Source: Escherichia coli (GTDB taxonomy: Bacteria; Pseudomonadota; Gammaproteobacteria; Enterobacterales; Enterobacteriaceae). From it: a stretch of DNA of 338 nt. The stretch lies in assembly GCF_003334335.1 (NCBI RefSeq), contig NZ_QOWQ01000215.1, one strand, 5' to 3'. Below, piece by piece: positions 1 through 338 of this stretch (the first letter of the stretch is position 1; each line of letters opens with the position of its first letter). Both the position numbers and the translations under genes were made by a program. The notes under the pieces were generated by a model, which searched no databases, was not told where the DNA came from, and was given only the letters and a program-made list of their open reading frames with translations.

Positions 1-338
1 CCATACAGCACGGCATTCACCGCCTGCATTTCTTCCACCTGGACAATGGCGTGCTCTTCCTGTTTGAGGTTATCGGTGATGATACGCAGACGACGGTAGG
101 TCGGGTCGTTCAGCTGCGCCGGATCTTCACCGGGAAGGCGCTCCACCGCCTGCTGGTAATTAAATTCGTGTTTCGGCTTGACGTAGCCCGGACGTAACAC
201 GCGGGTTTCACCACCACGATGACGCAGCACTTTTCCTTCAACAACCGGGGAGACATAGGCTGCCACCGGCGTTTTTCCGGTAATTTTGTCCAGCATCACC
301 TCTTCGGTGTGGAAATTCACCGTACGGCGGAAAAACAG
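1..338 (-). CDS. E: Major capsid protein, lambda gpE family (internal fragment, truncated at both window edges); N-terminus lies beyond position 338, C-terminal ~200 codons beyond position 1
   Basis: Seen in sequence: the reverse-complement frame with codons at + 336-338 down to 3-5 is open for all 112 codons; the other two minus-strand frames hit stops within the first ~35 codons, and all three plus-strand frames contain stops. Translation: LFFRRTVNFHTEEVMLDKITGKTPVAAYVSPVVEGKVLRHRGGETRVLRPGYVKPKHEFNYQQAVERLPGEDPAQLNDPTYRRLRIITDNLKQEEHAIVQVEEMQAVNAVLY. Established knowledge (recalled, not searched): lambda gpE residues ~26-137 read LFFRESYPFTTEKVYLSQIPGLVNMALYVSPIVSGEVIRSRGGSTSEFTPGYVKPKHEVNPQMTLRRLPDEDPQNLADPAYRRRRIIMQNMRDEELAIAQVEEMQAVSAVLK. 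The two are collinear with no gaps, about 66/112 identical. Codon usage (CTG, CCG, GCG, CGT preferred) is typical of enterobacterial genes and lambdoid head genes. Confidence 0.85.
   Translation of the reverse strand, partial: MFFRRTVNFHTEEVMLDKITGKTPVAAYVSPVVEGKVLRHRGGETRVLRPGYVKPKHEFNYQQAVERLPGEDPAQLNDPTYRRLRIITDNLKQEEHAIVQVEEMQAVNAVLY

Follow-up and report, generated by a model that had tools for sequence, protein, structure and literature searches.

Capsid gene fragment and flanking genes

In the window, by which we mean the whole 338-base stretch of DNA under analysis, frame 1 of the minus strand is open across all 112 codons, and its translation aligns without gaps to residues 26 to 136 of lambda gpE (66 of 111 residues identical, or 59%; blastp, E value of 1e-42). 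The first-pass annotation had placed the start of the aligned fragment at about residue 26 of gpE, and this position proved exact. The translation also matches the Pfam family PF03864 (Phage_cap_E) over model positions 22 to 127, with an E value of 3.8e-18, and the capsid match in three PHROG profiles of the major head protein (2353, 6020, and 29) begins at profile position 26. The window corresponds to codons 26 to 137 plus 2 nt of codon 138 of the capsid gene, that is, to gene nt 76 to 413, and the capsid gene that contains the exact window encodes 342 amino acids. The feature in the window is as follows:

1 to 338, minus strand: major capsid gene, internal fragment, of the phage 21 gene 7/lambda E type

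When the full 342-aa protein was compared with gpE by blastp, residues 1 to 341 were found to be collinear with gpE residues 1 to 340 at 61% identity, and a PDB search retrieved solved gpE chains (7VI9, E value of 5e-134; 7SJ5, E value of 5e-132). Since the protein is 61% identical to gpE, whose capsid structures are solved, it would be expected to adopt the HK97-type fold and to form a T=7 shell held by the decoration protein, without covalent cross-links. Each strand also has a 48-aa ORF outside the capsid frame; both were set aside for want of homology support, and chance alone would produce such ORFs on the strand opposite a coding region or in its other frames. An Rfam scan of the window yielded no match at an E value of ≤1.

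Flanks were read in six full-length exact-match places among public records rather than in the window itself. These are phage PhiR5_1 (L001), O104:H4 FDAARGOS_348 (L002), 99RCEF (L006), a second, O104:H4-type prophage in FDAARGOS_772 (L007), JNEC-KY179 (L008), and O104:H4 2009EL-2071 (L009). All six carry the gene order terS-terL-W-portal-C/Nu3-D-E-FI-FII-Z-U-V-G-T-H, and every gene is co-directional with the capsid gene and lies on the minus strand of the window, as had been predicted for the flanking genes. The offsets of the capsid, D, protease, and FI genes from the window are equal in the six places. With the extrapolated window coordinate taken as 12339 minus the L002 coordinate, the neighbourhood reads as follows, each entry being extrapolated from the exact-match loci:

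-1382 to -1029, minus strand: FII-type gene
-1036 to -668, minus strand: FI-type gene
-615 to 413, minus strand: full capsid gene
471 to 818, minus strand: decoration gene (gpD/SHP type)
855 to 1457, minus strand: nested scaffold frame (Nu3 type)
855 to 2360, minus strand: S49 protease gene (C type)

The following spacings hold in 6/6 places. The capsid ATG lies exactly 75 nt past position 338, where a start codon roughly 75 bp beyond that position had been forecast. The decoration gene (348 nt, 115 aa) ends 57 nt ahead of this ATG and matches HDPD and SHP models, in agreement with the gpD-like gene expected just past the capsid start. It is preceded by the protease gene (1,506 nt, 501 aa), and the scaffold gene anticipated beyond the decoration gene is present as a Nu3-type frame nested in this C-type gene. 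On the other side, the capsid stop lies 616 nt past position 1 and FI starts 51 to 52 nt after it, which bears out the prediction of an FI-like gene at least about 600 bp below position 1; FII overlaps the end of FI. The expectation of head-completion genes beyond position 1 held for FII, but FI is a packaging chaperone, and W, the other head-completion gene, lies upstream, between terminase and portal. Judged from the exact-match public sequences, the window itself would have these same lambda-order neighbours.

Identity of the neighbours and the nested scaffold

The identities of the neighbours were tested apart from the annotation by blastp of the flanking proteins against lambda proteins (NC_001416). 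For 13 of 13 flanking proteins, the best match was the lambda counterpart, and the matches followed lambda order, with these identities to the lambda counterpart:

Nu1: 53%
A: 67%
W: 55%
B: 61%
C: 53% (C-terminal part, 45% to Nu3)
D: 57%
E: 61%
FI: 28% (E value of 5e-7)
FII: 70%
Z: 91%
U: 99%
V: 99%
G: 100%

Extending the flanks and comparing their ORFs with lambda D, Nu3, C, and FI, the check suggested at the outset, found all counterparts in the six exact-match places. The PHROGs calls were head maturation protease, head decoration, major head protein, FI chaperone, and head closure Hc1. For the decoration protein, we found matches to Pfam HDPD (1.6e-23) and to the solved SHP of phage 21 (1TD3, E value of 9e-67), and gpD was matched as well; SHP is an established gpD homologue that is able to substitute on lambda capsids (PMC7602432). 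FI matched Pfam Packaging_FI (PF14000, 6e-14) and phrog_92 (3.8e-40), and a PDB search found no sequence relative of it among solved structures. PMC4856287 describes gpFI as a prohead-bound packaging chaperone that aids docking of the terminase-DNA complex. FII was assigned to phrog_82 and scored above the cut-off of the NCBIfam model tail_join_FII; no NCBIfam model matched the capsid, decoration, or FI proteins.

The protease gene contains an in-frame ATG at L002 10882, 903 nt into the gene, with AGGAGG, a strong Shine-Dalgarno sequence, ahead of it. The nested scaffold product would be 200 aa long, compared with 201 aa for lambda Nu3, and the annotation of phage 21 suggests that this internal start is in use. 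A Shine-Dalgarno sequence was sought at the other internal starts of the protease gene, and none was found. A scaffold start at codon 235, suggested by the blastp register to Nu3, was rejected, as the Shine-Dalgarno sequence is present at codon 302 only. The scaffold domain includes three repeats (L002 10903 to 11349, protease residues 309 to 457) of about 47 to 50 aa with a motif of roughly IM..EAKGRE.LA..LA...GMTVE.AR.IL...P; the phage 21 record annotates the corresponding repeats as "Tri boxes, function unknown". These repeats are visible in the protein only, and both Tandem Repeats Finder and a DNA repeat search left them undetected.

What we read here is gene order and homology, and functions are carried over from experimentally studied homologues. 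By analogy with these, scaffold and protease would direct prohead assembly on the portal, and FI would aid docking of the terminase-DNA complex on the prohead. Once the capsid shell has expanded, it would be cemented by decoration-protein trimers, and FII, together with W, would ready the head for tail joining.

Distribution and mosaicism of the head module

Phage PhiR5_1 and OR844803 (L005), a 1,498-nt wastewater contig that stops within the capsid gene, match the window at 100% identity; a source resembling OR844803 would therefore show an assembly-end truncation of that gene. Among 5,426 complete E. coli genomes, 1,909 match the window and 1,607 cover at least 80% of it. At ≥99% identity, the window is matched by 65 E. 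coli records, the O104:H4 outbreak lineage among these. Twelve plasmid-labelled records hold related copies, with no exact copy among them. In 1,559 of the 5,426 genomes, coverage of the 3.7-kb C-to-FII block is 80% or more, and about 97% of the genomes with an intact window also carry most of this block. About 30% of the complete E. coli genomes carry the phage 21-type head module. A record of a different kind is that of the T4-like Aeromonas phage AP1 (MT713136, L011), in which 245 nt (4925 to 5169) share 98% identity with the 5' end of an E. coli lambdoid capsid gene, and the 80 nt at 8538 to 8617 are a piece of a tail gene from an E. coli prophage. Both pieces lie in the last ~9 kb of the record, the end of which looks like a chimeric or contaminated assembly.

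Prophage boundaries, which the first-pass annotation had listed for checking, were located in FDAARGOS_348. Its element is a complete prophage of ~49.7 kb (~1,775.3 to 1,825.0 kb) inserted at yecE, with yecD and a yecE fragment bordering one end and the integrase beside yecE (DUF72), followed by yecN, at the other. The prophage runs from DinI, tail fibre, Lom, and J to excisionase and integrase, and its layout of early, Q, tRNA, lysis, head, and tail regions is complete. Three tRNA genes (Arg, Arg, and Ile) were observed in the O104:H4 prophage (L013 765 to 1014; NZ_CP022086.2 1805764 to 1806013), where they sit between the Q antiterminator region and a gene for a SASA-family esterase, upstream of the lysis genes.

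The breadth of the synteny was assessed in 80 IMG/VR viral loci whose capsid proteins are at least 95% identical, 77 of them with enough flank. Of these 77, 76 have D directly upstream of the capsid gene (by tblastn, L039 and L048 included), and all 77 have an FI-family frame directly downstream, which is complete in 75, fused to J in 1, and split into two shorter ORFs in 1. Most exact-match places are at least 97% identical to one another over the head block from W to FII. The terS gene has been exchanged between these places (100%, 75%, or no match). From Z to H, the tail genes of L002 and L009 are ~99% lambda-like, those of L001, L006, and L007 are only 74 to 82% identical, and this lower range holds for most of them in L008. 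Mosaicism beside the exact window takes the form of allele swaps at FI, terS, and the tail genes, without gene loss. Missing or replaced neighbours, flagged beforehand as the outcome that would be informative, are absent beside exact window copies and occur only in decayed relatives. The mosaic is joined within or at terS/terL, at FI, and between FII and Z, and the segment from W to FII travels as a unit. We noticed that O104:H4-type genomes (L002 versus L007 and L009) hold two to three prophages that are 98.6 to 100% identical from W to FII and differ in their terS and tail modules; such near-identical head modules provide long identity tracts for inter-prophage recombination.

The most variable immediate neighbour is FI. 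The O104 and KY179 alleles are 50% identical although both lie beside an identical window. The N-terminal 45 residues are conserved, whereas the C-terminal part diverges to 44 to 57% identity or less. At least four FI allele types of 120 to 127 aa were found (L002 13007 to 13375, L008 8006 to 8389, L003 7599 to 7973, and L091 4081 to 4443). In many loci, an in-frame ATG is present 11 codons upstream of the usual FI start.

The capsid gene of L008 contains a dense divergent patch at gene nt 432 to 600 (L008 7357 to 7525), which begins 19 nt past window position 1 and alters capsid residues 148 to 187, mostly within 148 to 172. This hypervariable patch was compared with FI in 76 loci, which are not independent samples, so that linkage may account for any pairing; the patch variants are those of L008 and L085 to L093. 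Patch type 1 (residues 158 to 172) was found only with KY179-type FI, in 9 loci, L008 among them; patch type 2 was seen once, together with a fourth FI type, and the O104-type and 21-type FI alleles were found only with patch type 0 (63/63). Across the same 76 loci, the patch at 158 to 172 showed no co-variation with the equally distant decoration gene. If co-adaptation rather than linkage lay behind the pairing of patch and FI C-terminal type, capsid residues 158 to 172 would mark the site of FI docking on the prohead lattice, a reading that we regard as doubtful.

Decayed relatives, alternative sources, and known systems

Decayed forms of the module exist among close relatives of the window. 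In the O157:H7 EDL933-type prophage (L010, NZ_CP124741, 5926 to 6914), capsid codon 84 is joined to a V-type major tail gene, and the deletion removes the 3' part of the capsid gene, FI, FII, Z, U, and the first codons of V. This fusion prophage keeps the same upstream head module (terL, W, portal, S49, and decoration gene), and its capsid codons 1 to 84 are 98% identical to the corresponding half of the window. The E::V junction is present in 300 of the 5,426 complete E. coli genomes and accounts for the roughly 300 genomes with half-window matches only. Other rearrangements were seen in viral contigs. An ORF for an IS200-type transposase abuts the capsid gene upstream, at the place where D would be expected, in L058 (39 to 308), a contig that starts inside the IS. 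In L065 (4081 to 7026), the last codon of FI runs in frame into the central tail fibre gene J, entering it near J profile position 470, which points to a defective prophage that has lost the genes from FII as far as the 5' part of J. L028 (1 to 2600) has an Rz-like lysis sequence and unrelated ORFs before the last 130 codons of C/Nu3, a layout in which terminase, portal, and protease are missing. Disrupted C/Nu3, FI, or FII frames were found in the viral contigs L029, L087, L068, and L059, with an internal deletion of C/Nu3 in L029 (1713 to 2559) and a C/Nu3 gene broken into separate ORFs in L087 (1054 to 2525).

Such relatives raise the possibility that the source of the window is itself a decayed prophage, with a truncated capsid gene or with a neighbour lost or replaced just beyond the window's ends, and the O157:H7 fusion, L058, L065, and L028 are examples of this kind. 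The window, however, is uninterrupted at position 163, the E::V junction point, and thus does not come from the O157:H7 fusion form, which is in any case only 98% identical over the half that it covers. Moreover, C/Nu3, D, E, FI, and FII are free of defects in 6/6 exact-match places, where neither abutting non-phage genes nor a truncated capsid gene was seen, and the ~97% of genomes with an intact window that hold most of the C..FII block likewise speak against decay. We therefore consider a decayed source very unlikely. Less probable still is that the synteny is true but FI or D has been replaced by a non-homologous gene in the source. What speaks for replacement is the variability of FI, with 50% identical alleles beside an identical window, four C-terminal types, and 28% identity to lambda FI, together with the swapping of terS and tail modules between exact-match places. 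Yet every FI variant matches the FI family (phrog_92, PF14000) and keeps the conserved N-terminal 45 residues, and none of the 77 viral loci, nor any of the E. coli loci, showed a non-homologous replacement.

The shortness of the window is all that favours a chance match to gpE or a pseudogene relic in non-phage DNA. Against this stand the E value of 1e-42 to gpE over 112 codons without gaps or stops and the 100% identity to complete genes for 342-aa capsid proteins, one of them from the isolated phage PhiR5_1, and we regard this explanation as refuted.

Taken together, the above makes it highly probable, on the strength of identical public sequences, that the window is an internal fragment, on the minus strand, of an intact phage 21-type capsid gene in the lambda-order late (head) operon of a lambdoid phage or prophage of E. 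coli. The outcome is textbook: the head module is well known, very common, and already described. A 338-nt fragment can be placed with confidence in the phage 21-type head operon, which has little import beyond annotation; its practical value is that of a positive control for synteny-based inference.

Compared with lambda (NC_001416), whose head genes run Nu1-A-W-B-C/Nu3-D-E-FI-FII, the present module has the same order, strand, and approximate gene sizes, and the proteins are reciprocal counterparts, mostly at 53 to 70% identity. At the nucleotide level, the head module consists of diverged alleles with ~67 to 75% identity to lambda where alignable, and D and FI are not alignable as DNA. The tail genes of the O104:H4 locus, in contrast, are 98 to 100% identical to lambda for U, V, G, and T and 90% for Z. 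The protease differs in length, being 501 aa here and 439 aa for lambda C (62 codons longer), and the scaffold repeat regions of the lambda and present proteins cannot be aligned collinearly.

The phage 21 head operon (M81255; genes 1, 2, 3, 4, 5/6, shp, 7, ORF1, and 8) is identical in gene order and sizes. The window is 94.4% identical to phage 21 gene 7, and nucleotide identities between phage 21 and the O104:H4 exact-match locus are 100% for terS, 99.3% for terL, 99.5% for W, 96.4% for portal, 95.5% for gene 5/6, 95.1% for shp, and 92.6% for gene 7. The annotated gene 6 of phage 21 has the same 903-nt nested offset and the same triple repeat. The capsid protein of phage 21 differs from the present one at 13 residues, its FI homologue (ORF1) has only 57% protein identity, and its FII is 90% identical over half its length. 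In the L002 locus, where head and tail genes were compared together, terS to E are 93 to 100% identical to phage 21 (genus Jouyvirus), whereas the tail genes are lambda-identical.
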